Positions 6,930-20,000 are shown, counted from the first letter of the stretch. The stretch is 20,000 nt of DNA from an uncultured virus (IMG/VR IMGVR_UViG_3300043473_000258) (IMGVR_UViG_3300043473_000258); one strand, 5' to 3'. A program made the numbers and translations. Notes: generated by a model from the sequence alone, not told the origin.

Positions 6930-7454
6930 CTACTTCAGGCGGACGTGCGACCCGAGGGTCACCGTGATTTCCTTGGGGATTTCAGTGCCAAGGGCCTGCG
7001 CGTCGATAACCGCCTGCCGGTTGAGCAGGTAATCGACTTTCGTGCGCGTCTCGAACCAGCCTTCCGGCAACTGTTCGATCGGCACGCTGCTCTCGATGGA
7101 GGGGGCGCTGTTCTGCTGAACGCGGATGTTGCCACCCGTGGGAAACTCCACCTTCTTGAGGCCGGAGAGCTGGAGGAGCGACAGAGCCGCCCCCTTGAGC
7201 ATCTCGACCGAGCGGTCGGTGGACTTCTTCATTGCATCGAGTCGGCCAATCTCCGCCTTGATGGCGTCTTGCTTGGCCTCCTCGTTGATGATGGCGTTGC
7301 GCAGCTCGAGGAAACGACCGGTCTGGTCGGTCTCCAGCTTGCCAATGCGGTCGACCAGCTCTGCGAGCTGAATCGGATTATCCGCATCGTCGATGCGGTC
7401 GAGCAGGGCCCCGAGGCCCTGGTGGATTTGATACAGTGCGAATGGTGCTTTCAC
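6930..7454 (-). CDS. Siphovirus Gp157-like protein
   Basis: Coiled-coil N-terminus, NIRVQQNSAPSI...LPEGWF...NRQAVIDA...GTEIP...VRLK C-terminus; GTGA overlap with bet, a usual neighbour. Confidence 0.8.
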   Translation of the reverse strand: MKAPFALYQIHQGLGALLDRIDDADNPIQLAELVDRIGKLETDQTGRFLELRNAIINEEAKQDAIKAEIGRLDAMKKSTDRSVEMLKGAALSLLQLSGLKKVEFPTGGNIRVQQNSAPSIESSVPIEQLPEGWFETRTKVDYLLNRQAVIDAQALGTEIPKEITVTLGSHVRLK

Positions 7455-8620
7455 AGTCCTGGGATGTTGTCGTTGGCTGGGTCGTTGAAGGCGACAAGCG
7501 CCTTGGCTCCGGCGAGGCAGCGGGCGGCAAGCTCACGCTTCCCCCGCTTTTCACCTTGCTCGATGTAACTCTGGCCGAGGTCGACCAGCTTCTGCAGTTG
7601 CTCCGGCTTCAGCTCCTTGAGCGTCTTGCCGCCGAGCGTGGGCAGGTCGCGCAGCTTGTCGGCCTCCCACTGGTCTTTCGGAATGGTGATGGGCTCCTCA
7701 GGGAACCCGGCGCCGTCGTTGTCGCTCTCCGCGGGTGGCGGGTTGTGACGCATCGGGTCATCCGGGGTCGGCGCAGGCGAGAGCTTGCCCGGCTTCTTGC
7801 GCAGGCGCCCACCGAGGGCGTTGCTGTTGGCCAGTCCGCCGCGTGGCGGGGTGACCGGCTCCTCGGGGTCGCCAGTGGCCCTGTCGCGCTCCTCACCCTC
7901 GTCGGCCGGGTCCGGGTAGACGTTGCCGTCATCCGCTCCCTTGACCTGCTGGCGGGGCGCGTGGGCGCTCTGCTCACCCTTGGCGGCGTCGGGTAGACGC
8001 TCGGGCTTGCGCTCGTCGGTCGGGTCGACCGGGGGCGGGGCCTGATCCATCTCCTCCGAGATGTAGAGGCTGCCCAGCTCCTGGGGAAATGCCTTGCGCA
8101 GGGCTTGAGCCTCCGCGCACTTGGCAATCATGAGCGCGAACATCTTCGGCCAGAGGCCGGAGAGATTCCCGTCGTCGTAGGTCGGCGCGAAGGCGTCGAA
8201 GTTGGCCACGCCGAAGGTGGGCTCGCGGAAGCCCGTGCGCCACGCGCCAACCTTGGCGGCGGCCGGGTAGGTCTTCGGCAGCCAGACGTCCTTCCAGACG
8301 CCATCCGCCCCGCACCAGTAGGGGCCCTGCTGGCCTCCATATTCGCCGGAGCGTTGGGCGACCAGCCGGAAGCCGTCGATCGAGGTGACGACCGTCAGCC
8401 GGAGGCCGCCGACCTTCTTGCCCTTCGAGTCCATCATGTTCTTGTCCCAGCGGAGCTGCCCGTAAATCTGGCGGCTGAGTGGGTCGAGCCCAGAGCGATT
8501 GCACTGGTGCACAAATAAGGCCACGTTCTGCTCGGACCAGCCGAGGCAGTGGGTCTGCTTCAGGAGGGTGATTTCCTCCTCTGTCATGTGTTCGCGCCGG
8601 AGCGCGGGGGTATCAGTCAT
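7451..8620 (-). CDS. bet: Phage ssDNA annealing protein Bet (Red-beta/RecT family)
   Basis: GLDPLSRQIY, TSIDGFRLVAQRSGEYGG, WPKM..LMIAKCAEAQALRKAFP, LYISEEM; long Pro/acidic linker. Confidence 0.93.
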   Translation of the reverse strand: MTDTPALRREHMTEEEITLLKQTHCLGWSEQNVALFVHQCNRSGLDPLSRQIYGQLRWDKNMMDSKGKKVGGLRLTVVTSIDGFRLVAQRSGEYGGQQGPYWCGADGVWKDVWLPKTYPAAAKVGAWRTGFREPTFGVANFDAFAPTYDDGNLSGLWPKMFALMIAKCAEAQALRKAFPQELGSLYISEEMDQAPPPVDPTDERKPERLPDAAKGEQSAHAPRQQVKGADDGNVYPDPADEGEERDRATGDPEEPVTPPRGGLANSNALGGRLRKKPGKLSPAPTPDDPMRHNPPPAESDNDGAGFPEEPITIPKDQWEADKLRDLPTLGGKTLKELKPEQLQKLVDLGQSYIEQGEKRGKRELAARCLAGAKALVAFNDPANDNIPGL

Positions 8621-8644
8621 GTTTTGTTTCTTCGGGATGGAACA

Positions 8645-8875
8645 TCAGGCGGCGGCTGCCTCCTCTTCGGGCTCCGCCTTCTCGACCTTGGGCGGGTCGA
8701 GCTCGTCGAGGTAGGCGCGGGCGTTGGCCCAGTTGCCATAGGCGACGGCCATGACGATTTTGAGCTTCAGGTCGCGCTCGTGGCTGATTTTGATTTCGAC
8801 GCGCATCATTTTAGTGACTTCCTCGAAGACTTCCGGGGTCATCGAGGTCGGGAATGGTCTAACGTATCTGGCCAT
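8645..8875 (-). CDS. Hypothetical protein, 76 aa
   Basis: ATG 8875 (MARYVRPF...) preceded by leader TCAGTCAACCAACAACAGAAAGCCCAGCCACT. Confidence 0.7.
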   Translation of the reverse strand: MARYVRPFPTSMTPEVFEEVTKMMRVEIKISHERDLKLKIVMAVAYGNWANARAYLDELDPPKVEKAEPEEEAAAA

Positions 8876-8909
8876 AGTGGCTGGGCTTTCTGTTGTTGGT
8901 TGACTGACT

Positions 8910-9119
8910 CTATTGGTGAATGTTGGCGCGGGGCACCTCGACGCCGCACTCGGCGGCCTCAAGGGGTGGCGGCCAGACCCACTCGAAGGCGCGGCCGGTG
9001 CCATTGCACCGCTCGCAGTCTTCGCGCACACAGTCCCCGTCGAGGAAATATCCCCAGACGAGGCCGGAGCCATCGCAACGCGAACAGGCTTGTTCGGCGT
9101 AGATTTTCAGGGCTGACAT
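8910..9119 (-). CDS. Small DnaJ-type (CxxCxGxG x2) zinc-finger protein, 69 aa
   Basis: CSRCDGSG...CERCNGTG; ATG 9119. Confidence 0.7.
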   Translation of the reverse strand: MSALKIYAEQACSRCDGSGLVWGYFLDGDCVREDCERCNGTGRAFEWVWPPPLEAAECGVEVPRANIHQ

Positions 9120-9127
9120 GGCTTGAT

Positions 9128-9200
9128 GTAATACAAAGCGAAACGGGGGAACCAAAATGAGCCGACCTTATAGGAAGGCAAGCCCAAATCGGTTCCCCCG
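9128..9200 (-). terminator. Long stem-loop with U-rich tail (terminator or processing site)
   Basis: Perfect 10-bp IR CGGGGGAACC 9144-9153/9191-9200 with inner pairing, followed on the mRNA by UUUCGCUUUGUAUU. Confidence 0.45.
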
Positions 9201-9206
9201 GTGGAA

Positions 9207-9473
9207 TTATTTGCGGCGGACCCGGCGCGGCTTCTTGCCGATGCGGGCCCGGACCTTTTCCATCTGGCGGCAGAGCACGGTCTGCCTGACCAGATAGCGA
9301 TAGAGGTCGTCGACCATGATGCGGTAAGGCTGGCGCCTGCGCTCCAGGCGCAGCTCGATGACGTCATCTCCGCCCAGGGGGGCGATGGTGACGACGATTT
9401 TCTTGGCGTCGGGGCCCCACCTCTGGAACGGCTGGCGGGTCCGGCGATGAATTGGCTTGAGGATTTCAGTCAT
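9207..9473 (-). CDS. Hypothetical basic protein, 88 aa
   Basis: ATG after hairpin and AACTCCCAAGCC leader. Confidence 0.75.
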   Translation of the reverse strand: MTEILKPIHRRTRQPFQRWGPDAKKIVVTIAPLGGDDVIELRLERRRQPYRIMVDDLYRYLVRQTVLCRQMEKVRARIGKKPRRVRRK

Positions 9474-9485
9474 GGCTTGGGAGTT

Positions 9486-9510
9486 GGCCCAAGGGATCGG
9501 ACCTTGGGCC
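9486..9510. repeat. Intergenic 9-bp GGCC-stem hairpin, 7-nt loop
   Basis: GGCCCAAGG-gatcgga-CCTTGGGCC. Confidence 0.8.
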
Positions 9511-9519
9511 GGGTTGTTG

Positions 9520-9735
9520 TTAGGCCACGCGGAAGAGGTGGCGTTTCTTCCCCAGGCGCGTCATGACGGCCTCGGGGCGGGGCCAGCGTGGGTCGAAGCA
9601 GTGCGCGAGGCTGCTGCATTCGGCGGACACGCGGAGTTGCCCATCCTTGCCCCGGCTAAGGGCAAAGTGGGAGTGACCGAGGGCGCCAGCGTAGCGGACG
9701 GCCTCGACTTGTTCGGGTGTGGGCTTGAGTTTCAC
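9520..9735 (-). CDS. Hypothetical protein, about 71 aa (GTG 9735; alternative ATG 9753)
   Basis: 3' part of track ORF 9520..10050 that fits the gap between neighbours. Confidence 0.55.
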   Translation of the reverse strand: MKLKPTPEQVEAVRYAGALGHSHFALSRGKDGQLRVSAECSSLAHCFDPRWPRPEAVMTRLGKKRHLFRVA

Positions 9736-9741
9736 AGCTAT

Positions 9742-9752
9742 AAGATACCACA
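9742..9752 (-). promoter_or_regulatory. Possible extended -10 promoter (TGTGGTATCTT), leaderless transcript
   Basis: TGn-TATCTT lies 6 nt upstream of GTG 9735 in an AT-rich patch; no clear -35. Confidence 0.35.
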
Positions 9753-9775
9753 TCGGTTTTTCGTAAATGCCCGAA

Positions 9776-9808
9776 TCCGGGCCTCTTGCCAGTGTGGAGA
9801 GGCCCGGA
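9776..9808. repeat. Intergenic 11-bp inverted repeat
   Basis: TCCGGGCCTCT 9776-9786 / AGAGGCCCGGA 9798-9808, just after the stop at 9822. Confidence 0.8.
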
Positions 9809-9821
9809 CTTGACAACGAAA

Positions 9822-10127
9822 TCACTCCGCGAACGGAAACGCCCGCATGACGTAAAAGCGGCCGTCGATTTCCTGATACTCGGGGCAAAAGCCCTCGTTG
9901 GACTGGAAGCACGCTTCCACCTCCTCCGAGAAGGCGTCGTACTTGGCGCGGACCCCTTCGCCGTCCACCTCTTCCACCTCGTAGGCTTCGACGTGGAGCA
10001 TGAAGGGGCCGATTCGGAGCGAGGAGGAGAGCCGGGCGTGGGCCGGGCACTCGCTGCCGTCGCTGTTCTGGATTTCCTTTCCGCTGGGCTCTAGGCCCAG
10101 CCGGTCAAGTGGCAGGCTGGCGCTCAT
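9822..10127 (-). CDS. Hypothetical acidic protein, 101 aa
   Basis: ATG 10127 in ATGA overlap (MSASLPLDRL...). Confidence 0.75.
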   Translation of the reverse strand: MSASLPLDRLGLEPSGKEIQNSDGSECPAHARLSSSLRIGPFMLHVEAYEVEEVDGEGVRAKYDAFSEEVEACFQSNEGFCPEYQEIDGRFYVMRAFPFAE

Positions 10128-10321
10128 TGGGTGCGGATGAATGACTGGTGACGTTGGAGCTCGACCTTGGCGTCGTGTGCATCGCACATGGCGCGGGCCA
10201 GGCTGGCGGTGAGATAGCCCACGGTGTAGGCGTCGGGAAACGCCATCTTCTGGCGCTGGGCTTCGGCGGTGGCGTGGTCGGCCTCCTTGCGGGCGGCCGT
10301 CATGGCTTCGGAGAAGGTCAT
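10124..10321 (-). CDS. Hypothetical protein, 65 aa
   Basis: ATGA-coupled on both sides. Confidence 0.7.
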   Translation of the reverse strand: MTFSEAMTAARKEADHATAEAQRQKMAFPDAYTVGYLTASLARAMCDAHDAKVELQRHQSFIRTQ

Positions 10322-10485
10322 GGCTGGGCCTCCTTCTTGCCTTCCAACTCCGCCACCCGGCGATCGAGGCGGCCGATTTCGTCAATCAGCTCGCAGATCA
10401 CATTGACCACCCGGATCTCGGTGGGCACGGCGACGTCGCATTTGACGCCGCAATTCAGGATGTCCTTACATTCGGATAGCAACAT
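10318..10485 (-). CDS. Hypothetical protein, 55 aa (below ORF-track cutoff)
   Basis: MLLSECKDILNCGVKCDVAVPTEIRVVNVICELIDEIGRLDRRVAELEGKKEAQP; starts 4 nt after the upstream stop and ends in an ATGA overlap. Confidence 0.7.
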   Translation of the reverse strand: MLLSECKDILNCGVKCDVAVPTEIRVVNVICELIDEIGRLDRRVAELEGKKEAQP

Positions 10486-10489
10486 GGGG

Positions 10490-10711
10490 TCAGAGGTTGA
10501 GGTTCTGGCAGTCGTGGGCGTAGGCGCGGCGGCGGGCGCTGCGCTTCTCGGTCATCAGGCGGGAGCGGCTCCCCTCGAAGAGGTCGGCCAGATAATCCCG
10601 CAATTCGTGCCCGTCCCATGCCTGAGGCATCCGGGCGGCGTTGCCGATCGCGGTCTTGGCGATCGATTTGGTCAGGTCGCGGATAAATTTCCGCTTTTCG
10701 GTAACTGTCAT
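10490..10711 (-). CDS. Phage hypothetical protein, 73 aa
   Basis: P..WDGHELR motif recalled from other phage early proteins; leader CAACCCCAAGCCAAGCCACAACAAA. Confidence 0.75.
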   Translation of the reverse strand: MTVTEKRKFIRDLTKSIAKTAIGNAARMPQAWDGHELRDYLADLFEGSRSRLMTEKRSARRRAYAHDCQNLNL

Positions 10712-10741
10712 TTTGTTGTGGCTTGGCTTGGGGTTGATGGA

Positions 10742-11050
10742 CTAGCGGGGCAGGGCGCCGGTGAGGATGGCGCCCAGCGTGCGGGCGAGGCCCACGGCGG
10801 TCTTGCTGCCCCATTCGGTGTGATACCTGGGCGCGTCCCACTCGGGGCTGTTGATCTGCTTGAGCTGCAGGATCGCGGCGATCGTGTGACCGCGTTCGCG
10901 CTCCTCGTCCTCGCTGGGCTCCGCTTGCGCGGCGATTGCTTCGCGTATCCAGTCGGATGCATCGGCGAGGATTTGCCGATCTGTTTCTTCGGTGCGTTCC
11001 GCAGTGGCAAGCTCGGCGAGAGCGGCCACCAGTTTTTCGGGGCTTGTCAT
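10742..11050 (-). CDS. Phage hypothetical protein, 102 aa
   Basis: C-terminal RYHTEWGSKTAVGLARTL; follows a junction repeat. Confidence 0.75.
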   Translation of the reverse strand: MTSPEKLVAALAELATAERTEETDRQILADASDWIREAIAAQAEPSEDEERERGHTIAAILQLKQINSPEWDAPRYHTEWGSKTAVGLARTLGAILTGALPR

Positions 11051-11072
11051 GTTGTCAGGGCTTGGGGGTTGG
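11048..11072. repeat. Gene-junction direct repeat, copy 1 (mRNA CCAACCCCCAAGCCC-TGA-CAAC-ATG)
   Basis: Identical to 11394-11417 apart from a 1-nt indel. Confidence 0.85.
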
Positions 11073-11396
11073 TTCGAGCGGGTAACCGAGAAGGCCCCGC
11101 ATCTGGTTGGCTAGGTCCGCCATCCGGGCGGCCATGTCGGGATCGTCCCCGTCCGCGTACTCGGTCGCGACGTCGGCGATTTCGGGGAGGGCATAGCAGA
11201 GCAACGCCTTGGCGGCGGCGAGCTGGCCGGAGAGGCTCTCCGGGGACTCGATTTCGTGAAAACTGCCGCCGTACATGTGGCCGCGGTTTTGAATGTAAAA
11301 ATAGGCTTCGCTCTTCGAGGAGAGGATCGCCTCTAGGGTGCCGTCTGCTTTGAAGGCGCCCCAGTTTAGACTGGGTTTTTCGGGTTGGTTTGGCAT
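11055..11396 (-). CDS. Hypothetical protein, 113 aa
   Basis: ATG 11396 and stop 11055 both lie inside the two repeat copies. Confidence 0.75.
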   Translation of the reverse strand: MPNQPEKPSLNWGAFKADGTLEAILSSKSEAYFYIQNRGHMYGGSFHEIESPESLSGQLAAAKALLCYALPEIADVATEYADGDDPDMAARMADLANQMRGLLGYPLEPTPKP

Positions 11397-11417
11397 GTTG
11401 TCAGGGCTGGGGGTTGG
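11394..11417. repeat. Gene-junction direct repeat, copy 2
   Basis: catgttgtcagggctgggggttgg. Confidence 0.85.
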
Positions 11418-11955
11418 GTGGCTGGTCTGCGGGGATGATTCGGAAATCGGATCGGTCGTACTCGCCCGACAGGCGCGAGGCTTCGCAATCGGCGATGTGA
11501 TCCGTGATGGCCGCTTCCGCTTCCTCGCGGGTGGCAAAGCGCCAAGGCGCGTCGTCAATCTGCCAGCAGTCCTCCCAATGGTTCACGCAGCGCGTGATGA
11601 CCTTGAAGGGGCCGGGGCGGTGCTTGGTGTCGCCGTAGCCGTCGCACAGCTCACACGCGGCCGGGGTGCCGTCTGGCCACTTGTGGCCGGTTGGGTCGTG
11701 GCCGGAGCCGTGGCAGGCGTTGCAGGTGTCGGGCTCTAGGAAATCCTCGATCCGGTGCTCCAGAAACTCCGCGGTGCACCTCGGGCACGGGCCCAGATCG
11801 TCTCCGGTCTCGGCGTCGATCATCTTGTCGCAGGTGCACACGACCGATCCGAGGAATTCAATGATCGATTCCTGGGCTTCGCTGAGAAGGTCGCGGGCCT
11901 CCTCGATCGGGGTTTGCTCGCGGGCGTTGTCGTCAGGGCGTGGGACTATTGGCAT
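11401..11955 (-). CDS. Multi-domain Cys-rich protein with DnaJ-type Zn finger
   Basis: CTC...CPRC, CNACHGSG...CELCDGYG, C-terminal WEDCW...FATREEAEAAI; ATG 11955 (or TTG 11961). Confidence 0.75.
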   Translation of the reverse strand: MPIVPRPDDNAREQTPIEEARDLLSEAQESIIEFLGSVVCTCDKMIDAETGDDLGPCPRCTAEFLEHRIEDFLEPDTCNACHGSGHDPTGHKWPDGTPAACELCDGYGDTKHRPGPFKVITRCVNHWEDCWQIDDAPWRFATREEAEAAITDHIADCEASRLSGEYDRSDFRIIPADQPPNPQP

Positions 11956-11957
11956 GG

Positions 11958-12236
11958 TCAAAGGGGGCGGATGGATTCGAGGGTTTCAGGGAACCACCAC
12001 GCGCCAAGGCGCCAGCCGTCCGGCCCTTGGTGCTCCAGATAGACGGCGCCCGGATAGGCTCCGCGGGCGGTGGGATCGGCGACAAAGCCCCGGACGCGGG
12101 CGATCCCGGTGGCTCCGTTGCTGTTGGTGTAGCGCACCACCTGACCGACGTGGAAGGCGCAGGGGGCGGGCGGGGTGTCCCGCATATCGGCGGGCACGTT
12201 CTGGGGCTTGGGGGCCCCGTGGATCGGTTTTGTCAT
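11958..12236 (-). CDS. Phage hypothetical protein, 92 aa (SH3-like beta pattern)
   Basis: FHVGQVVRYTN...WWFP; AC-rich leader and hairpin 12272-12297. Confidence 0.75.
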   Translation of the reverse strand: MTKPIHGAPKPQNVPADMRDTPPAPCAFHVGQVVRYTNSNGATGIARVRGFVADPTARGAYPGAVYLEHQGPDGWRLGAWWFPETLESIRPL

Positions 12237-12315
12237 TGGCTGGGCTTGTGGGGTTGGGGTTGGGAAAGGGTGGCCGGGTATCCCTACGCCCCCGGCCGGG
12301 GCGCCCTGTTGCCTC

Positions 12316-14151
12316 TTAGCCGTTCTTTTGAACCGTCAGCAAAACGGTATTTACTGAGGTTCCCGCGTCCTTGAAGGACTCCGGGGGCAGCGTCTCAATG
12401 TGGACGTCCGCGCCGGTCTGTTGAATCTCGCGGAGCAGCTCCACGAACGAGCGGCGGCCGGTGTTGCCTCCCATGATGGCCACAAGGCGCCCCTCCGGGC
12501 CCAGGTGCCGCCATGCGTGCGCGACGTGCTCAACGTCCGCCCCCATCGTGAAAGGGGGATTCATGACGATCCGATCGAAGGTGCCGATCGTGCCGTTAAG
12601 CGTGAGGAAATCCGCCTCGATGATTTCCGCGGGCCCCGGCAGCGCCCGGAGGAGCTGGCAGAGCTTGGGGTTAATCTCGACGGTGACAAGGTGAATATCG
12701 GCGGGCATCATCTCGACCAGCGCCCCGGTGCCCGCGGAGGGCTCCAGCACGCGATCGCAGTCGCGGATTTCGGCCCGCTCCACCACCTGACGCGCCAGCC
12801 ATTCCGGGGTGGGGAAGAGCTGGGGCGCGACGACGACGGCCACACCCGCGGCCGCGGTCTCCTTCAGCGCCTCGAAAGCGCGATCGTCGTCGCTCTTCGG
12901 GGCCGGGGTGTAGGCGGTGGCCGGTAGCAGCTTCGGCCCCCGTGGGGGCGGTGGCTGGCCGGGCTCGGGCTTCTTGTGGACCTTCGAGTCGGTCAGGAAG
13001 ACCGCGCAGATCGTCCGGTTGCGATCCTTGTCCCAAACAAAGGCCGTTCGGATGCGGTGGGAGTGCTCAACCTCCCGCGTCCCCTTGTAGTCAGTATGGA
13101 TCTTTGCGTACTCTGCCGCCGTCATTTCGACTTGTGGCGACGTGATAAACTCGCCGCGGCTCCAGGGGTTCGGATAGGTGATCGACGCTGCGCGATAGTT
13201 GCACAGGGGGAGCTGCACCGGCCGGGGCTTTTTCTCCAGCAGGGCGGACGCGCCTTGATCCTCCAACATCGCCTTTTCATAGGCGAGCCGGTTGTCTAGG
13301 TGCTCAATGCAGCGGGCCAGATAAACGACCTTCGACGGCAGCAGCTCACGGGCGGCCGCCACGATTTCCGCCACCGTGCGCGGGGCGTAGAGGCTGGGAT
13401 ATGAACCGCTCAACCCGCAATAGGGGCTCGGGCTCTGGCTCCAATCCTCGCGATCGCCTTCCTTGCGGGGCAAGTGGAAATCACCCCAGCCGGGCACGTA
13501 GCCGCCAGCGTAGCGAAGCGCGGCGGCGTCCTGTTCGGCGCCGGGCTCCATCGCGGCGATCGACTCCCAGGCATTGATCGCGCTGGTCACCTCGACCGCT
13601 TGGCGCTCGCGCTTGCGCTTGTCCGCCTCCAGTCCTTTGATGCGGCGGGCCCGGACTCCGGGCGCCTCCTTATATTTCGCGGCGGCGATCGCACCCTTGG
13701 CGCGGGCGATCCAATATTTGGAGGTTTGCCACATTTTCACGGCGCGATCCATTCCATTCTGGATGCGTTCGGCGTCCTTGCGGGCGTGGCGCTCGCTGTG
13801 ATGTCCAACAAGGATCGGCTGGCCTAAGGGGATGCCGTCCGCGATCGCGCTGACGCCATCGCGGGCCCGCTTGGCGTCCTCTGCGCGTGCTTCGCTGTAG
13901 TCTTCGAAGCGTTCGGCCCGCTCCTCTGCGCGGGAAACTAGGCTTTTGTCCTCATCGCCAATCTCCCCGCACAGCTCGATCAACAGATCGGCGCGGTCTG
14001 GCGTCCACATTGGCGCAACGAAAAGTTGCTGTTTGGGGGCCCAAATGAACCCGGCCGCCTTCACGCGGGCGAAGGTGTCGGAATCGAGACGGGCGGCGGG
14101 GTATAGTCTGAGCTTGTTGTCTTCTGGGCTGTAAGTGGCTTGATCTTGCAT
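12316..14151 (-). CDS. DUF3560 domain fused to an amino-(N6A/N4C) DNA methyltransferase, 611 aa
   Basis: ATYSPEDNKLRLY, GFIWAPKQQLFVAPMWTP, IPLGQPILVGHHSERHARKD (DUF3560); C-terminal FPTP, VLEPSAGTG (motif I), VEIN, ADFL, IVMNPPF (motif IV). Start ATG 14151. Confidence 0.9.
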   Translation of the reverse strand: MQDQATYSPEDNKLRLYPAARLDSDTFARVKAAGFIWAPKQQLFVAPMWTPDRADLLIELCGEIGDEDKSLVSRAEERAERFEDYSEARAEDAKRARDGVSAIADGIPLGQPILVGHHSERHARKDAERIQNGMDRAVKMWQTSKYWIARAKGAIAAAKYKEAPGVRARRIKGLEADKRKRERQAVEVTSAINAWESIAAMEPGAEQDAAALRYAGGYVPGWGDFHLPRKEGDREDWSQSPSPYCGLSGSYPSLYAPRTVAEIVAAARELLPSKVVYLARCIEHLDNRLAYEKAMLEDQGASALLEKKPRPVQLPLCNYRAASITYPNPWSRGEFITSPQVEMTAAEYAKIHTDYKGTREVEHSHRIRTAFVWDKDRNRTICAVFLTDSKVHKKPEPGQPPPPRGPKLLPATAYTPAPKSDDDRAFEALKETAAAGVAVVVAPQLFPTPEWLARQVVERAEIRDCDRVLEPSAGTGALVEMMPADIHLVTVEINPKLCQLLRALPGPAEIIEADFLTLNGTIGTFDRIVMNPPFTMGADVEHVAHAWRHLGPEGRLVAIMGGNTGRRSFVELLREIQQTGADVHIETLPPESFKDAGTSVNTVLLTVQKNG

Positions 14152-14208
14152 GGTTTTTTCTGGCTTGGTTGTTGTTGGCTGGCTTGGTTTAGACTGCAAA
14201 GAAAGGGT

Positions 14209-14238
14209 ACAACGTAGCGAGGGCCCGCTACGTTGCAA
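14209..14238 (-). promoter_or_regulatory. Sigma70-like promoter with overlapping palindromic operator
   Basis: Minus strand TTGCAA-16 nt-TACGTT; IR CAACGTAGCG-N6-CGCTACGTTG (14210-14235). Confidence 0.6.
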
Positions 14239-14241
14239 AGC

Positions 14242-14499
14242 TCAAAAGCGAGGGGCGATCCGGCCCGTCTCCAGATATTCGGCCGCTTTCTCTGTGGCCG
14301 TCTGGAATTGGTCGCTTTCAAACTCGAAGCGGGCAGCGATGCGGGCCAGCTCCGCGATCCTTGCCGCGCTGGCGGCGTTCGCGGCGGCGTCTTGGCGCCG
14401 TTGCCAGCGGGCTTGCGTCTCTTCTTGGTGATAACGGCAGAGCCAGCCACCTTGGCAAGCTGTGCACGTTCCGTCCGGGCGGGGAGTTGGCTTTGTCAT
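14242..14499 (-). CDS. Hypothetical protein with CxxC-x5-CxxH, 85 aa
   Basis: ATG 14499 in ATGA overlap; CTACQGGWLCRYH. Confidence 0.7.
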   Translation of the reverse strand: MTKPTPRPDGTCTACQGGWLCRYHQEETQARWQRRQDAAANAASAARIAELARIAARFEFESDQFQTATEKAAEYLETGRIAPRF

Positions 14500-14831
14500 T
14501 TCAGGGCGAAACGTGAGGCCATACGAAACGCTCCGGCGAGGGTGTCCGCCCGGAAGTGGAACCCGGACGGGTGCCAGGCACGCCAAGGCGCATCCGGGCC
14601 CGCGGTGCGCGAGATGATGAACCCGCGGCGGGTGTGGATCTTGAAGGTGCGATCGCTGGGGTAGCGGTGCATCGATTCAAACGGGCAGCGGCCGGACGGT
14701 GCCGGGGTAAGACTGGTCGGGATCGAATCATCCCAGCTCCGGCCGCAATGGCCGCAGGTGGCGATCGAGTGGCTTTCGGGAGTTAGGCGGGTGCGGTGCG
14801 TTGTAACGCTCCAAATGCGGATCAATTTCAT
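14496..14831 (-). CDS. Phage Cys/His hypothetical protein, 111 aa
   Basis: TCGHCGRSWDDS...TPAPSGRCPFE..H; ATG lies within the 38-bp repeat. Confidence 0.75.
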   Translation of the reverse strand: MKLIRIWSVTTHRTRLTPESHSIATCGHCGRSWDDSIPTSLTPAPSGRCPFESMHRYPSDRTFKIHTRRGFIISRTAGPDAPWRAWHPSGFHFRADTLAGAFRMASRFALK

Positions 14832-14865
14832 AGGGTGGGGCTGGCTGGCTTGGTTGTTGGTTAGG
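14828..14865. repeat. Perfect 38-bp direct repeat, copy 1 (leader plus ATG)
   Basis: tcatagggtggggctggctggcttggttgttggttagg, identical to 15154-15191. Confidence 0.97.
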
Positions 14866-14872
14866 CTGGGGT

Positions 14873-15157
14873 TTAGTAGGGAGAGAAACGGGCGGCGGTC
14901 AGATCGATCTGGAATTCAAACGGGGCGCAAAAATCCGCCCGGAGTGATTCGGAGTCGAAGCAATCGACAAATTCCGCCACGCTGGGCGGGGTGCATATCC
15001 AGAGCTTGTCCCCGATCATGCGAAAGGAGATTTGATCGGACGCGACCTGGGGATCGGTAAAACCCGCGCTGATAAGCGCGAGGGCGACGGGGCAGTGTGC
15101 GGCCGCGTCCGGGCGGCCGATTGCGATATGTTCGGGGGTGACTTTGATCGTTGTCAT
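14873..15157 (-). CDS. Phage hypothetical protein, 94 aa
   Basis: MTTIKVTPEHIAIG...CPVALAL...FVDCFD...PFEF; bracketed by the 38-bp repeats. Confidence 0.8.
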   Translation of the reverse strand: MTTIKVTPEHIAIGRPDAAAHCPVALALISAGFTDPQVASDQISFRMIGDKLWICTPPSVAEFVDCFDSESLRADFCAPFEFQIDLTAARFSPY

Positions 15158-15223
15158 AGGGTGGGGCTGGCTGGCTTGGTTGTTGGTTAGGACTGAAGAG
15201 CGGGCCCAGCGTACCGGGCCCGC
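15154..15223. repeat. 38-bp direct repeat copy 2 (15154-15191) plus GCGGGCCC hairpin (15200-15223)
   Basis: mRNA GCGGGCCCGG-UACG-CUGGGCCCGC-UCUUCAGU-CCUAACCAACAACCAAGCCAGCCAGCCCCACCCUAUG. Confidence 0.95.
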
Positions 15224-15227
15224 GGTT

Positions 15228-15737
15228 TCAATGCTCCCCGGACTGGTCCGCAAGAACGGCTTCGCGCTCCTCCTCCTCGCGCCGTTTCTCCTCCTCGCGT
15301 GCCTGATAGTCCCTCTCGTTTTCGGCCGTTTGCTCCGCGAGCTGGTCCGCGCAGCGGGCCGCCTCTTCCGCGGTGTCATAGGTGGCCAGCTCCCACTGGC
15401 TCGCCATGCTCTTTCCCATTGTCCACCCGGCAAGAAACCCGCGGCCGTTGGGCAGGAACGCCACGATTCCGCGGATCGTTGTGTCCTGGCAATCGTCCGC
15501 GAACCATCCGCGGTGCGGCAGGTGGATCACGTTGTCCGCGTAGCGCCAGCGAAGGCCGGGGAATTCCTCGAGATAGAACCCGAAAGCGCGATCGCCGCGG
15601 GTGGCTGGCTTGGGCTCCTCCTGATAGCTTGTCGAATTGCCGCGCCACGTTCCCGCCTTGAATGCGGCCAGACGGCGCTGCAATGGCCAGTAAAGGTGAA
15701 AGACTCGCCGCGGGTAGCTGAAGGATGCGAATTGCAT
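15228..15737 (-). CDS. Phage hypothetical protein, 169 aa
   Basis: HRGWFAD...RGIV..LPNGRGFLAG...AARCADQLAE..AENERDYQ, with a charged helical tail. Confidence 0.8.
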   Translation of the reverse strand: MQFASFSYPRRVFHLYWPLQRRLAAFKAGTWRGNSTSYQEEPKPATRGDRAFGFYLEEFPGLRWRYADNVIHLPHRGWFADDCQDTTIRGIVAFLPNGRGFLAGWTMGKSMASQWELATYDTAEEAARCADQLAEQTAENERDYQAREEEKRREEEEREAVLADQSGEH

Positions 15738-15766
15738 AGCTTTGGAGCTTTCTAAGGGTGGGGCGG

Positions 15767-16471
15767 TTAGGATTGGGCGGCGGGTTCCCTCACAAGGAAA
15801 ACATATTCGAGCACGTCACCGGCCAGCGGCGACTCTGGGAGGGCATCGTGCCAGGATGAAAACCAGCTTTCATCCGAACAGGAAACCGGCGATCCCATGT
15901 TCTGCCGGGCGATCCAACGATCGGCCGCCTCCTTTTCCGCGGGTTCGATCCCGCTGGCGTCCCCGTTGATCAAATAGGAGGCCCAGTAGGCCGGAGCCTG
16001 GGCGGTGTAAATTTCCAGTTTCGGCGAGACCAGCGGCACGGCACGCGCTGCCAGCTCTTCCGCGGTGAAATCTTCCCCCGCTTGCGTTGGGCTGGCTTCG
16101 AGATCGTCCGCGTGGAAGCAATCCGCGATCGAATCATAGACCAGCGTCCGGCCGCGGAGCCGTTCAACTTCCGCCTCCTCTAGCGGGAAAACTTCCGTCA
16201 GATGATACGCGCTCCCGAATTCGGTTTCCCCGTTGGGCCCCTCGCTTATCATGGCGCAGATCGTGAAATCCGCTTCGCCGTCGATCTGGGCGTTTTCAAG
16301 GGCCCAGCTCCGATCCTTGAATTCGGCGCCCACGGCGATCCGGGCGAGTCGCCACGGCTCCTCAGTTTTCACGATATAGGCGGGGAAAAGGTGGCTCACC
16401 CCGTCGTTTCCGTTCCCGTGCGACACGCCGAAAAAGCGGGGCGCTGGCTGGCTGGCTTGGTTGTTGTCCAT
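15767..16471 (-). CDS. Phage hypothetical protein, 234 aa, probably two fused domains
   Basis: C-terminal PAYWASYLINGDASG...GDVLEYVF module; N-terminal codons contain 21 nt of the leader repeat. Confidence 0.8.
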   Translation of the reverse strand: MDNNQASQPAPRFFGVSHGNGNDGVSHLFPAYIVKTEEPWRLARIAVGAEFKDRSWALENAQIDGEADFTICAMISEGPNGETEFGSAYHLTEVFPLEEAEVERLRGRTLVYDSIADCFHADDLEASPTQAGEDFTAEELAARAVPLVSPKLEIYTAQAPAYWASYLINGDASGIEPAEKEAADRWIARQNMGSPVSCSDESWFSSWHDALPESPLAGDVLEYVFLVREPAAQS

Positions 16472-16506
16472 TTGGCTTTTGTTCTATTGGGGCGCCTATT
16501 GGCGCG

Positions 16507-16561
16507 GGTTGTTGTTGGCTAACTGAAGAGCGGGCCCCGGCCGGGGGAAGCCTGGGCCCGC
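16507..16561. repeat. Second GCGGGCCC hairpin plus TCTTCAGT and AC-rich leader
   Basis: actgaagagcgggccc 16522-16537 identical to 15192-15207; arms 16530-16537/16554-16561. Confidence 0.9.
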
Positions 16562-16576
16562 AATCAATCGCCGGAC

Positions 16577-16975
16577 CTAGTAACATTCGGTCCAATGTTC
16601 GCCGGTCTCTTCCCCCCACTGCGAGCGGGGCGCGAGGAGCTGGCCGGAGCTGTTATAGTCGCGGCCGCAGTCGCAAGGGCACGTAAAGGCGTCAAGGGTC
16701 ACCTCGCGCCCACAGGTGCAGCGGCCGATCGCGGGGTGGCGCGTCTCCCATTCGCGCCGTTGAATTCCGCAATCGATGAGCCCGGCAAGGTCCGGGGGAA
16801 GCGGGTCCGCGGTGCAGCGTGCCCAGTTTTCGGCGCTGGCCGGGTTCTTATTCAGGGGGATCCCGTCTTCTGTGACGGGGAAGCAAAAGCCGGATCCTCT
16901 GTCCGGCCGGAGGAATTCGCGCACAAATTCGACTTCAACGGTGAAACTGACTTCGGAGATAATTTCGATCGGCAT
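16577..16975 (-). CDS. Phage Zn-ribbon protein, 132 aa
   Basis: ATG 16975; CTCG...CPCDCGRDYNSSGQLLAPRSQWGEETGE. Confidence 0.8.
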   Translation of the reverse strand: MPIEIISEVSFTVEVEFVREFLRPDRGSGFCFPVTEDGIPLNKNPASAENWARCTADPLPPDLAGLIDCGIQRREWETRHPAIGRCTCGREVTLDAFTCPCDCGRDYNSSGQLLAPRSQWGEETGEHWTECY

Positions 16976-16979
16976 GGTT

Positions 16980-17390
16980 TTAGGCGGTGGCGGGTTGGGG
17001 ATTCTTGCAGACGTGCAGACAGGCCACGCTGACCAGTTTCCCGCAAGGGAGTTGGAAAAGCGTGTCGGTCGTAAAGGCGCGGAAGCGGCGGCCGTCGACT
17101 GAGACGGATCCTTCCATCTGATAACCGGACTGCCGGGGATTGAGCAGCGAGCGATCGCCGTGCAGAGTGTAGGCGTCGATCTGGGGATAGGTCGGGCCCT
17201 CCTTCCATTCGGCGGACACGGCGAGGCCGCGGAGCTGGTCGCAGATATGCCAGGGCCCGCGGTGGCGGGTGGCGAAATGGCGCTTGCCAGCGTCGATCGC
17301 CTCTTGACCGAAAAAGGCGATCGCCGCTTCGAGCGTGATCGGGGTGCATCCGGCACCGGCCGGAAGTCTAAGGGGTGCGGGTTGTTTCAT
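16980..17390 (-). CDS. Hypothetical protein, 136 aa
   Basis: ATGA overlap upstream; 4-nt gap downstream. Confidence 0.75.
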   Translation of the reverse strand: MKQPAPLRLPAGAGCTPITLEAAIAFFGQEAIDAGKRHFATRHRGPWHICDQLRGLAVSAEWKEGPTYPQIDAYTLHGDRSLLNPRQSGYQMEGSVSVDGRRFRAFTTDTLFQLPCGKLVSVACLHVCKNPQPATA

Positions 17391-17542
17391 TGTTTGGGCT
17401 TGGTTTTGTTGTTGGGCTTGCGGGTGGGGAAGAGGTCGGCCAGCTCTTCCCAGATAACGGGAAGGACGGCGCGGAAGAGGAAAACGCCAAAGCCGCCGCC
17501 AATGACGGCGACGGCGATCGAATAGTCGGAGGTGAAATCCAT
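17387..17542 (-). CDS. Small single-pass membrane protein, 51 aa
   Basis: MDFTSDYSIAVAVIGGGFGVFLFRAVLPVIW... hydrophobic stretch, basic tail, ATGA overlap. Confidence 0.6.
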   Translation of the reverse strand: MDFTSDYSIAVAVIGGGFGVFLFRAVLPVIWEELADLFPTRKPNNKTKPKQ

Positions 17543-17569
17543 TTTGGGCGGGGAGATATTACGTGGGGA

Positions 17570-17594
17570 GGCCAGACGGATCGAACGTCTGGCC
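17570..17594. repeat. Intergenic 9-bp GGCC-stem hairpin, 7-nt loop
   Basis: GGCCAGACG-gatcgaa-CGTCTGGCC. Confidence 0.8.
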
Positions 17595-17604
17595 GGGGTG
17601 GCGG

Positions 17605-18339
17605 CTAGTCGTTGGAGCCTGGGAAAGCGGCCATCACGGGCCCGATCACGGCTTCGAGCGAGGTATGATAATCGGAAACGACTTCCGATCCGTCGTCCGC
17701 GTTGCCATAGACAAAGAAAACGCCCGATCGGCGCTTCTTCTTGTCGTCTGGCTTGCGAGCGCAAAGCGTTTCGCAGTCGACCGCAAACATGGCGGCCAGA
17801 ATGACGGCACGCGAGCGCGTCCAGTCTGCCAGCGCGAGGCCCTCATTCTCGCCGGTGCCCTCATCGTCCGCGTCGTTGTTCAGGTTCAACTCGAACCCGG
17901 CAGCCAGTAGCGCGTCGACAATGGCGGCCGCGTTCCGGCGCTCGCACCTCTGCCGGGCTTCAGAGCGTCCCCCGTACCCTTTACGGATACCGGCGAACAG
18001 TGCCGCCTCGTTGACCGCGGCCACAATGGCCACCGCCACCCGTTCGATCGTCTCCCGCATCGCTGGCCGGTTAAGAGACGGCAGGCGCGTCTCCAGCATT
18101 TCGAGCGCGTAATGCGCAGCGCCCAGATCCTCCCGAGAGAGTGTGACGGTCACAAGCTGGGCCCGTTCCGCGGGCGTCTGGCATTCCGGCGGCCGGGTGG
18201 AAGCCTGGGCCGGGGTGGAGCTGGTCGACGTCGACGGCGAGGCCAGCGGATCCGCGGCGGAAACGTCGTGAGCTGGGCCCGCGGTGCGCGATGCCTGGGG
18301 AAGACCGCCAGAAGCGGCGGGGTCATTGGTTGTTGTCAT
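17605..18339 (-). CDS. Phage hypothetical protein, 244 aa (first gene of the leftward unit)
   Basis: ATG 18339; S/T/P/A-rich N-terminus; C-terminal IVDALLAAG...GVFFVYGN...VVSDY module. Confidence 0.75.
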   Translation of the reverse strand: MTTTNDPAASGGLPQASRTAGPAHDVSAADPLASPSTSTSSTPAQASTRPPECQTPAERAQLVTVTLSREDLGAAHYALEMLETRLPSLNRPAMRETIERVAVAIVAAVNEAALFAGIRKGYGGRSEARQRCERRNAAAIVDALLAAGFELNLNNDADDEGTGENEGLALADWTRSRAVILAAMFAVDCETLCARKPDDKKKRRSGVFFVYGNADDGSEVVSDYHTSLEAVIGPVMAAFPGSND

Positions 18340-18459
18340 TGGTTGGAAGGCCAGCCACAAGGGCCCGCGACAGAGAAGGCCCAGCATTCCAGCCCACAGG
18401 GAGCGGGTGGAGCGGTGGGGAGTCGGTCTCTGGCATCGGGCAAAGGTGGAGCTGGTCTC

Positions 18460-18490
18460 ACAACGTAGCGTGCAGACGCTACACTCGCAA
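18460..18490 (-). promoter_or_regulatory. Sigma70-like leftward promoter with the same operator
   Basis: Minus strand TTGCGA-17 nt-TACGTT; GTAGCG-N6-CGCTAC at 18465-18482; acaacgtagcg identical to 14209-14219. Confidence 0.65.
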
Positions 18491-18761
18491 GCCCAGAACA
18501 GAGGCAAAGCGCGATTTCCCCAGGCTCCGACACCCTGACCGCGGCCGCCCAGGCTCCCGGAGTTGGACAGAGCCGGGCCCGGCCGTCTGCCCGCCCGGCC
18601 CCCAGAATTAAGCATTCTTTATTGCCGCCCCGGCGCCCTATGGGGCCTTGCGCCTCGCGCCCGCGCACGTAGCGCGTAATCGATTAACCCCTCCACAGGA
18701 AAGATAGCTTCATGGCAGAAATGATTTGACGATACGCTGGGAAAGGTCCATGGATACGGTA

Positions 18762-19019
18762 ATGCCAAAAGGACGCCCGATTCAGGACCCCAGGGGGAGG
18801 AAGAGAGTGAAGCTGCAACCCTGGGTGAGCCCGGACACCGCATTTGCGCTACGCTGGCAAGCTAGTCAGGCGAAGACGACGATTGGGCACATGCTCGACC
18901 AGTGGCTTAAAGACCGTGCTGGGCAGGTGAGCAAAGTTTCCGCTACGCTAACCAAGAGACTTAGCGATACGCCAATAACTGAGGAAGACCTCGATGACAA
19001 TGGAGACCCGATACTATGA
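18762..19019 (+). CDS. Ribbon-helix-helix-like DNA-binding protein, about 85 aa
   Basis: GRP...KRVKLQPWV-SPDTAFALRWQASQA-KTTIGHMLDQWLK strand-helix-helix pattern; start 18762 or 18750. Confidence 0.6.
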   Translation: MPKGRPIQDPRGRKRVKLQPWVSPDTAFALRWQASQAKTTIGHMLDQWLKDRAGQVSKVSATLTKRLSDTPITEEDLDDNGDPIL

Positions 19020-19489
19020 GCAACCTGATTGAATTGGTGCTTGGCGCCCGGATGGCTGGGGGCTGGGAGAACGAGATGGGGTGGATTCTTTCCGACCTGA
19101 AATTCGTGCCTACTGGGGCGGACCAGACGCCGAAGACGGGGGACGTGGTCCTCTTTGATGCCATGAGTAATAAGTGGGCCCTCAAACCGGTGGTGCCCGT
19201 TCCTTTCACGCCGCCCGTGGACGTGGCCGAGGCGGAGCCGCTCGAGCATGAGGCCACTGGGCAGGAGGTTGCTTACATTCCGGGGAAGGTGGCGCCGGAG
19301 CCTGTGCCGGATCCGCAACTGGTGGCGACCTTGCGGCTTTTGGACGCGGTCGAAAGGGGAAATGACCTGCTGGGGGAGGCGGTCAGTTTGCTGACAAAGA
19401 TCCAGACCGATTCGGACCTCATCCAGCAGCAGACCGAAACCCTGCCCGACACCCTCAAGGTCGTGCGCAACCATTTCGCACGCGAATGA
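19016..19489 (+). CDS. Hypothetical protein, 157 aa
   Basis: ATGA-coupled on both sides. Confidence 0.75.
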   Translation: MSNLIELVLGARMAGGWENEMGWILSDLKFVPTGADQTPKTGDVVLFDAMSNKWALKPVVPVPFTPPVDVAEAEPLEHEATGQEVAYIPGKVAPEPVPDPQLVATLRLLDAVERGNDLLGEAVSLLTKIQTDSDLIQQQTETLPDTLKVVRNHFARE

Positions 19490-19794
19490 AGCGCCCCACC
19501 AAAGCCCAGCGCAACCTCGAGAAGGCCGTGCACGAGGCCCAGGACCGCCGCGCCATTGCCACTCGGGAAGGCATCCCCACGGCCGACCTGAAAATGCCGG
19601 AGGCCCATGTCATCCAGATTCCCATTTACCGGCCCGTTATCGTGGGCGAGCGCCTCACGGCGGCCACCGACGTCAAGGCTGGCACCTGGGGCATTGAGGG
19701 CATCCCGCGGGACCTGGTGAACACCGTCTTCAACGGCCAGTACCTCTACTTCCGCCGCGTGACCACCGTCCCCCTCACCATCCACGTTCAATGA
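19486..19794 (+). CDS. Hypothetical protein, 102 aa
   Basis: ATGA-coupled on both sides. Confidence 0.75.
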   Translation: MKRPTKAQRNLEKAVHEAQDRRAIATREGIPTADLKMPEAHVIQIPIYRPVIVGERLTAATDVKAGTWGIEGIPRDLVNTVFNGQYLYFRRVTTVPLTIHVQ

Positions 19795-20000
19795 CCCGCT
19801 ACTCCGGCAACCAGATATTCAACGCCCTCGCCGAGGGGGATCATCCCACCATCACTGACACCGCCATCTTCGTGCCCGCCGAGGAGGTCGCACTCCTCCA
19901 AGACGCCATCACCCGCGCCTTCCAGACGCTCCTGGTGCCAGCCGCTGAGTACGTCCCGGCCATCGGCGATGCGCTCGACATCCTGAAAAAGGCCGGAGCC
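19791..20000 (+). CDS. Hypothetical protein (runs off window)
   Basis: ATG 19791 in ATGA overlap; MTRYSGNQIFNALAEGDHPTITDTAIFVPAEEV... open to the edge. Confidence 0.65.
   Translation, partial: MTRYSGNQIFNALAEGDHPTITDTAIFVPAEEVALLQDAITRAFQTLLVPAAEYVPAIGDALDILKKAGA

Follow-up and report, generated by a model that had tools for sequence, protein, structure and literature searches.

The closest described counterparts of the locus reported here are the PeSLs of T4-type phages (RB49/phi1, PST/T4 and nt-1/KVP40; PMC2839356, PMC4122927), which are repeated intergenic expression elements with GC stem-loops that precede ORFans in a variable genome region, flank single genes with two copies and recombine with no integrase. 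The authors of the PeSL work showed indels and mini-circles, compared PeSLs with integrons and left the existence of a dedicated recombinase open (PMC2839356). The principle that expression signals serve as crossover points, together with the integron comparison, is already published for T4-type PeSLs (PMC2839356). Similarly, the SAS/ESAS of Cluster K mycobacteriophages are short one-directional repeats before the ATGs of non-structural genes, some of which have an upstream inverted repeat, and a role in translation initiation was proposed for them (PMC3203893). CUP repeats in the leading regions of IncN plasmids head co-oriented small operons and recombine mutually (PMC5371602). An array resembling these systems was found in a window of 20,000 nucleotides, the final 20 kb of the 77,615-base record of one uncultured virus (IMG/VR IMGVR_UViG_3300043473_000258), in which 22 minus-strand open reading frames (ORFs; g1 to g22), hand-picked from a six-frame listing, tile positions 18339 to 8645 upstream of a bet recombinase gene. 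The original prediction had described it as an integrase-free, integron-like array, driven by the adjacent Bet, whose junctions reuse leaders, spacers and hairpins both as expression signals and as recombination handles. We consider it rather probable that this is a variable array with Shine-Dalgarno (SD)-free translation leaders, and that its few long leader copies are scars of, and occasional sites for, ordinary short-homology recombination.

A/C-rich leaders and GC hairpins of the array

As predicted, the array genes are co-oriented and mutually unrelated: no pair among the 22 proteins matches in BLASTP at an E value of 0.01, and most of them are without a Pfam or PHROG family. From their position upstream of bet, gp157 and helicase genes, they are predicted to be early genes. 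Fifteen of the 17 array proteins looked up are present letter for letter in a protein collection, whereas g19 (in its ATG form) and g22 were not found there.

The 30 bases before the ATG have an A+C content of 0.75 in the array (n=22), compared to 0.55 in the other genes (n=52, starts picked as the first ATG), with a p value of 1e-5. The difference holds for leaders inside the upstream gene (0.73, n=9, versus 0.58, n=30; p 0.009) as well as for those in open gaps (0.77, n=13, versus 0.50, n=22). An SD-like word precedes one of the 22 array genes, compared to 7 of the 52 others. Moreover, the median folding energy from -30 to +30 is -4.25 kcal/mol at the array starts (n=22), against -10.0 kcal/mol at the other starts (n=52) and -18.75 kcal/mol at internal ATGs (n=168), making the array starts the least structured of the genome. 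Apart from a weak preference for A at -5 and C at -2 (16 of 22 leaders each), the leaders show no fixed consensus at constant spacing from the ATG. The predicted leader motifs are at their places and concentrated in the array, which holds all three genome copies of AACCAACAAC, all five of CAAGCCAGCC and three of the four of CCCCACCCT, each on the transcribed strand. Being A/C-rich, nearly SD-free and hardly foldable, the leaders look like expression signals, in line with the prediction; SD-free initiation from unstructured leaders has been described in Bacteroidetes (PMC3155529, PMC6847099). A/C-rich first codons are also seen in g1, g3, g9, g11, g13 and g14, and Thr is the second residue in 9 of 23 genes.

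A search for promoter-like sites over positions 8000 to 20000 yielded one, on the non-coding strand, compared to 1.7 expected, bearing in mind that the promoter type of the host may differ. The main promoter likely lies within the 360-nt structured region ahead of g1, whose coding strand gave no match to the sigma-70 consensus. Rfam gave no match in the genome.

All eight intergenic gaps of at least 46 nt fold at -17 kcal/mol or lower and seven of them contain GGCC, in agreement with the predicted GGCC-stem hairpins, and the remaining 14 junctions are short gaps or overlaps. The TCAGT spacer proposed as a further common part does exist, but is limited to 3 of 14 examined intergenic stretches (CAGT in 4 of 14). 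The order of hairpin, pyrimidine run, CAGT and leader is seen before g5, g7 and g10, with 16 exact bases common to g5 and g7. The stem before g5 and g7 recurs in nine unrelated viral contigs that have no array gene in common, mostly before T-rich runs, a distribution suggestive of an RNA hairpin that is terminator-like or stabilising; T-runs after the array hairpins are weak. Separately, CGCTACGT is confined in this genome to stems at 18463-18470 and 18667-18674, upstream of g1, and to the hairpin that precedes g10 (14212-14233). GGCC was also considered as a recognition site, given its density of 22.7 per kb in the long gaps (22 sites) versus 11.3 per kb genome-wide, but this idea was dropped, as each stem counts GGCC twice.

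Long start-linked copies and possible gene turnover

Repeats around the gene starts were assessed by word counts, local alignments and Markov nulls. The predicted direct repeat bracketing g7 matches without a mismatch along 38 bp, and no other exact direct repeat in the 77,615-base genome is as long. The second predicted repeat (11048-11072/11394-11417) is present and longer than proposed, with identity in 38 of 44 columns, but imperfect; it spans -21 to +22 around the start codons of g13 and g14, running into coding DNA. In addition, a third exact copy of the g7/g8 leader core, 21 nt long, lies within the first codons of g5, and the g6 leader has both ends of the g7/g8 leader. Three matches, namely the 38 bp exact, the 38/44 and the 21 bp exact in g5, exceed a shared vocabulary.

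Most of the other reused parts may represent just such a shared low-complexity vocabulary. A common 10-mer was found in 11 of 231 leader pairs, compared to a mean of 2.3 in dinucleotide shuffles, none of 1000 of which reached 11; however, an order-3 Markov model trained on the leaders, an over-fitted and hence harsh null, reproduces this level of sharing in 993 of 4000 runs. By contrast, the 34-base leader copy is beyond the leader-trained models, whose longest match over 4000 runs of each order was 20. Among 253 junction pairs (-80 to +33), four score at least 20 versus a shuffle mean of 0.01, and a single pair reaches 23 exact bases. The claim that the junctions reuse the same parts accordingly stands for a few true copies, but not for most pairs, which share only short words. 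The 21-base leader core also occurs in three bacterial genomes, which was judged chance, as all occurrences lie within one conserved coding frame on the other strand.

The minimal exact pairing reported is 23-27 bp for Red-beta and 31-34 for RecA, and spaced mismatches are tolerated (PMC3945230), so that the g13/g14 pair may be usable for annealing too. To judge from the sequence, a crossover in either repeat would preserve the upstream stop and the start codon. Of 18 distant homologues of g14, the eight that were read share its C-terminal domain and none has the start common to g13 and g14, suggesting that this start was likely acquired within the array.

Four sequencing runs (X1 to X4) were compared as contigs, at 88% likeness; a soil metagenome is the best match for the phage among sequencing runs, and no RNA run with phage sequence was present among the runs listed. 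In X4, a contig of 247 bases with ~90% likeness and a depth of 2.4 runs from the end of g21 into the start of bet, with 34 other letters in between; compared by eye, their first part resembles the g22 leader and their last part that of bet. A related phage is without g22, and the join lies within a leader. In X1, a possible source of the phage, the 38-bp repeat is collapsed into a contig of its own, so that a 326-bp deletion would create no new joint and would be invisible; the 346-bp deletion left no sign as a common form, the X1 contig being unbroken over 7109-13251 in an assembly that drops rare forms. The g7 contig has a depth of 6.7 in X1, below the 7.9 and 9.7 compared with it, but this was not counted as a sign of deletion. 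The low-depth pieces in X2 and X3 are identical to the phage, with no gene-sized change in the covered parts. Four of the five joints in the run comparison had short sides of 21-32 letters and were set aside as belonging to other organisms.

Protein records hint at further variation. Those on an 8,570-base contig match g10 (95%), g11 (95%) and g12 (90%, including the tail coded by the g13 leader), and one on a 23,600-base contig matches g11 (97%), its final residues fitting an overlap with the g12 start. While g10, g11 and g12 have relatives at 90-97% identity, the search with g13 (lengths 62-198) found only itself among eight candidates and no homologue, which fits a strain-specific gene; its best atlas score of 0.86 is a lead only. 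Altogether, the support for gene turnover is thin. The predicted gain and loss of single genes at connectors has the support of one loss, that of g22, joined in a leader, but g22 is not bracketed by repeats. The few true copies and this join are in line with connectors as recombination handles.

We propose that the A/C-rich, G-poor leaders would act as SD-free translation start regions on which ribosomes land, whereas the GC hairpins are predicted to punctuate or stabilise the mRNA. Selection for unstructured, strong SD-free leaders would lead to a small common vocabulary. A crossover or slip within a leader would keep the stop, a working leader and the ATG, so that the recombinant would survive, whereas joins inside genes would be lost by selection. 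Each gain may duplicate or splice a leader, which would account both for the long copies and for the leader core that now sits within g5. Plausible catalysts would include host RecA and replication slippage as well as Bet. Several points weigh against this proposal. Some of the 52 first-ATG comparison starts may be wrong; the use of SD words by the host is judged from the phage (7 of 52 other genes); and the role of the leaders in translation is deduced from nucleotide sequence. The lost g22 is not a repeat-bracketed gene, selection by itself would already place joins in intergenic DNA, and the DNA comparison of a related array consists of the single X4 contig. Moreover, the absence of g13 may be part of a larger replaced block, as g14-g18, g20, g21, Bet and ParB are also without 90% relatives, and the relatives' protein records were grouped solely by contigs of equal length.

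An alternative account is one by translation signals only, in which composition gives rise to the shared words, each of the two long repeats was left by a single duplication or conversion event, and turnover proceeds by illegitimate recombination filtered by selection. It draws on the 10-mer sharing reproduced by the order-3 leader-composition model, on the 252 of 253 junction pairs with fewer than 23 exact bases and on the g22 indel, which has no long flanking repeat. However, three separate long copies (38, 38/44 and 21) at or just past start codons, each 38-base repeat bracketing exactly one gene, and a repeat-bracketed gene (g13) that has no homologue while its upstream neighbour has one, speak against it, and we hold it to be rather unlikely. 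Quite improbable, in our judgement, is that the connectors are protein or nuclease sites, either SAS/ESAS-like or for RNA processing, such that the transcript would be cut, or a phage factor would boost translation, at hairpin, CAGT and leader. The common order of parts before g5, g7 and g10 and the 16 exact bases of g5 and g7 would suit such sites, as would the start-linked SAS repeats in non-structural genes of Cluster K mycobacteriophages (PMC3203893), but the scarcity of CAGT and TCAGT, the missing consensus save for the weak A at -5 and C at -2, and the lack of an Rfam match argue otherwise.

The Bet/RecT-family protein is well supported, with 80 bits against PF03837 (cut-off 24) over model positions 3-193 of 198, and its gene is indeed the next after g22. 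Genes of the bet type usually lie in early operons, and annealing proteins of the RecT/Red-beta type typically have a partner 5'-3' exonuclease gene nearby. On the simplest view, its position next to the array would be the usual site of a recombination gene in an early operon. That Bet is instead dedicated to excising and inserting single-gene cassettes, as the original prediction held, gains from this adjacency, from a 38-bp repeat longer than the 23-27 bp quoted for Red-beta (PMC3945230), from crossovers that would keep stop and start codons, and from the tyrosine integrase profile (PF00589), which gave no match in the record (rated 67% complete), the control being positive in 14 of 14. Yet only one junction pair in 253 reaches 23 exact bases, neither a fixed recombination site nor an accretion order is visible, and no exonuclease partner of the YqaJ (PF09588) or DUF3799 (PF12684) type was found in the 67% complete record, other exonuclease families lying outside that search. 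Other bet loci do not speak for it either. None among the best 80 of 96 (identity 39-63%) has more than one array gene in common; 66 with at least 4.4 kb upstream were scored. Exact start-linked repeats of at least 16 bases were found upstream in 6 of 58 bet loci (7 kb upstream; longest 21), compared to downstream in 8 of 51, by a test that in this array detects only the 38-mer. In addition, Burkholderia phage AH2 and Gordonia phage Orchid have repeated start-linked leaders but no RecT or ERF match, other annealing families being outside the search. As start-linked repeats are not in excess upstream of bet and such leaders exist in AH2 and Orchid, a dedicated link between Bet and the array is unsupported, with no sign of it found, and we regard a dedicated cassette system as very improbable. 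In one other virus contig, an 18-29-base repeat that spans start codons is present four times downstream of bet. A further reading, namely that Bet anneals 20-40-base promoter-less leader copies carrying stop and start in a non-SD host, that g7 (326 bp) and g13 (346 bp) circles are excised and reinserted ready for translation, and that the vocabulary is kept partly for this, seems to us unlikely.

Features of the array and of the phage record

The coordinates of the features are collected in Table 1.

Table 1. Array, repeat, hairpin and recombination-gene features, in window coordinates
Feature	Position	Strand	Basis
Array of 22 small, mutually unrelated ORFs (g1 18339-17605 ... g22 8875-8645)	8645..18339	-	six-frame ORF listing, BLASTP
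360-nt structured region ahead of g1, divergent from plus-strand genes at 18750	18340..18700	-	folding
38-bp exact repeat, copy before g7 (34-nt leader + ATGA)	15154..15191	-	exact-repeat search
38-bp exact repeat, copy before g8, 326 bp from the g7 copy	14828..14865	-	exact-repeat search
Third exact 21-nt copy of g7/g8 leader core, inside first codons of g5 (codons 2-9)	16446..16466	-	absent from the original prediction
Imperfect repeat at g13 start: g12 stop, ATG, first g13 codons	11375..11417	-	38/44 columns
Imperfect repeat at g14 start: g13 stop, ATG, first g14 codons; 346 bp from the g13 copy	11032..11072	-	local alignment
g22 leader (TCAGT, AACCAACAAC, AAGCCCAGCC)	8876..8909	-	5' part like relative's pre-bet leader (compared by eye)
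GGCC-stem hairpin, g1/g2 gap	17570..17594	-	folding
GCGGGCCC/GGGCCCGC hairpin + TCTTCAGT before g5	16522..16561	-	exact-repeat search, folding
Stem as before g5 + TCTTCAGT, before g7 (16 nt exact with g5 copy)	15192..15223	-	exact-repeat search, folding
13-pair hairpin + pyrimidine tail before g10, terminator-like	14208..14237	-	folding
g10/g11 gap: GC hairpin + A/C-rich leader	12237..12315	-	folding
g18/g19 gap: long GC hairpin	9754..9821	-	folding
GGCC-stem hairpin, g19/g20 gap	9484..9512	-	folding
Long hairpin without GGCC, g20/g21 gap	9144..9200	-	folding
g6, homologue of Burkholderia phage AH2 gp12	15228..15737	-	PHROG, leader comparison
g7, 94 aa, bracketed by 38-bp repeat	14873..15157	-	PHROG 19191 E 7e-12; atlas 0.93
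g10, DUF3560 + methyltransferase	12316..14151	-	PF12083 E 1e-34
g13, 113 aa, bracketed by imperfect repeat	11055..11396	-	no homologue found
g22, 76 aa	8645..8875	-	missing from one contig of related phage (run X4)
Bet/RecT-family single-strand annealing protein	7451..8620	-	PF03837 E 2e-22; PHROG 2780 E 4e-58
Gp157 / Mu Gam-like protein	6930..7454	-	PF05565 E 7e-14; PHROG 253

The genes with relatives point in several directions. The g7 family is present in Gordonia phages and other viruses (35% identity to Orchid gp101), g8 likewise matches Gordonia phages, g6 matches Burkholderia and Aeromonas phages, and g10 conjugative plasmids, so that the array genes appear to be drawn from a wide pool of unrelated phages and plasmids. 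Full-length plasmid matches of g10 are at 47%, and conjugative plasmids account for 4051 of its best 5000 records. It is a gene type common on conjugative plasmids, and in cultured phages only its methyltransferase part matches; a metagenome search with g10 gave 25 loci in which g10 is the sole gene in common with the array. PADLOC gave no match except the methyltransferase of g10, and g14 and g22 had no match in cultured phages. Ahead of g19, an extended -10-like word at 9742-9750 on the minus strand, the sole one on the array coding strand and one of 23 genome-wide, lies seven bases before an in-frame GTG at 9735; given this spacing, g19 is possibly leaderless and read from a promoter of its own.

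To the left of the array, Pfam and PHROG identify genes for DnaB, a helicase of superfamily 2, a ParB-like protein, Gp157 and Bet/RecT; a likely large terminase subunit is also encoded there, assigned by its look as no profile matched. The record is rated linear and 67% complete. The same six bases are present at both ends and related contigs measure 72-77 kb, so it may be near complete despite this rating. Among protein records, homologues of the capsid candidate are 47-96% identical (seven matches) and those of the terminase 81-97%, with 81-90% for the terminases on related contigs of 72,332, 62,106 and 23,600 bases. No close relative with DNA context was found among viral contigs searched with ParB, the capsid, a capsid alignment, a g12 alignment and a 20-base leader, nor among cultured phages (capsid query) or species genomes (query with a related terminase); very near records possibly lie outside the searched sets.

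Elsewhere in the record (record coordinates), an exact 22-base repeat at 18718 and 20324 on the plus strand stands ahead of two likely structural genes, and CCCTAGA also occurs twice at 37306-37329; a late-gene signal is possible. A TROVE-domain (Ro60-like) gene (15220-16836; PF05731, E 8e-14) directly follows the likely capsid gene, and no Rfam RNA was found in the genome. Other observations are a PEP-CTERM-tagged protein (10179-10877), a 3728-aa polyvalent-type protein with DUF6884 and a kinase-like domain (40330-51516), and a block of two Erv1/Alr sulfhydryl oxidase genes with glycosyl-/methyltransferase genes (51513-56397).

Comparison with known systems

Like integrons, the array consists of unrelated single genes in one orientation, but it differs in having no integrase match, and a search with Rfam gave no attC-like site. 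The SAS is a fixed 13-mer with the SD core AGGAG, whereas the array leader is a loose A/C vocabulary without SD, and its stems pair as RNA hairpins (PMC3203893). Specifically, no fixed 13-mer with an SD core is present 3-7 bp before the array starts, although AACCAACAAC and CAAGCCAGCC share with SAS/ESAS the single orientation, on the coding strand, and the restriction to non-structural genes. The array is neither SAS nor an integron. The CUPs carry promoters and ArdK-binding sites (PMC5371602), none of which is shown for the array.

Small-gene arrays with homologues of g6 or g7 and repeated start-linked leaders are also present in phages AH2 and Orchid. In AH2, gp12 is preceded by a 20-nt leader which, together with the ATG, recurs at 95% identity, and in Orchid A/C-rich leaders of up to 41 nt are repeated at 78%. 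Unlike those of the array, the leaders of both phages carry SD-like words. In the literature searched, which covered few subscription papers, no report of SD-free leaders as phage cassette joints was found.

The closest likeness is to PeSLs, with which the array has in common the intergenic GC stem-loop and the placement before ORFans. However, PeSLs comprise a consensus sigma-70 promoter and an SD, are conserved over ~100 bp and number ~50 copies per genome, with mini-circles shown (PMC2839356, PMC4122927). The array, from a phage that is not T4-type, has neither a sigma-70 promoter per element nor an SD at the 3' end of each, and its homology is limited to 38-44 bp or less in few pairs. The array works like PeSLs but is not a PeSL system. 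With it, the PeSL idea is carried over to a form that has neither promoter nor SD, in a soil phage lineage not described before. Its 326-bp and 346-bp units are two compact cases for testing whether single genes are shuffled by a Red-beta-type protein by way of translation leaders.

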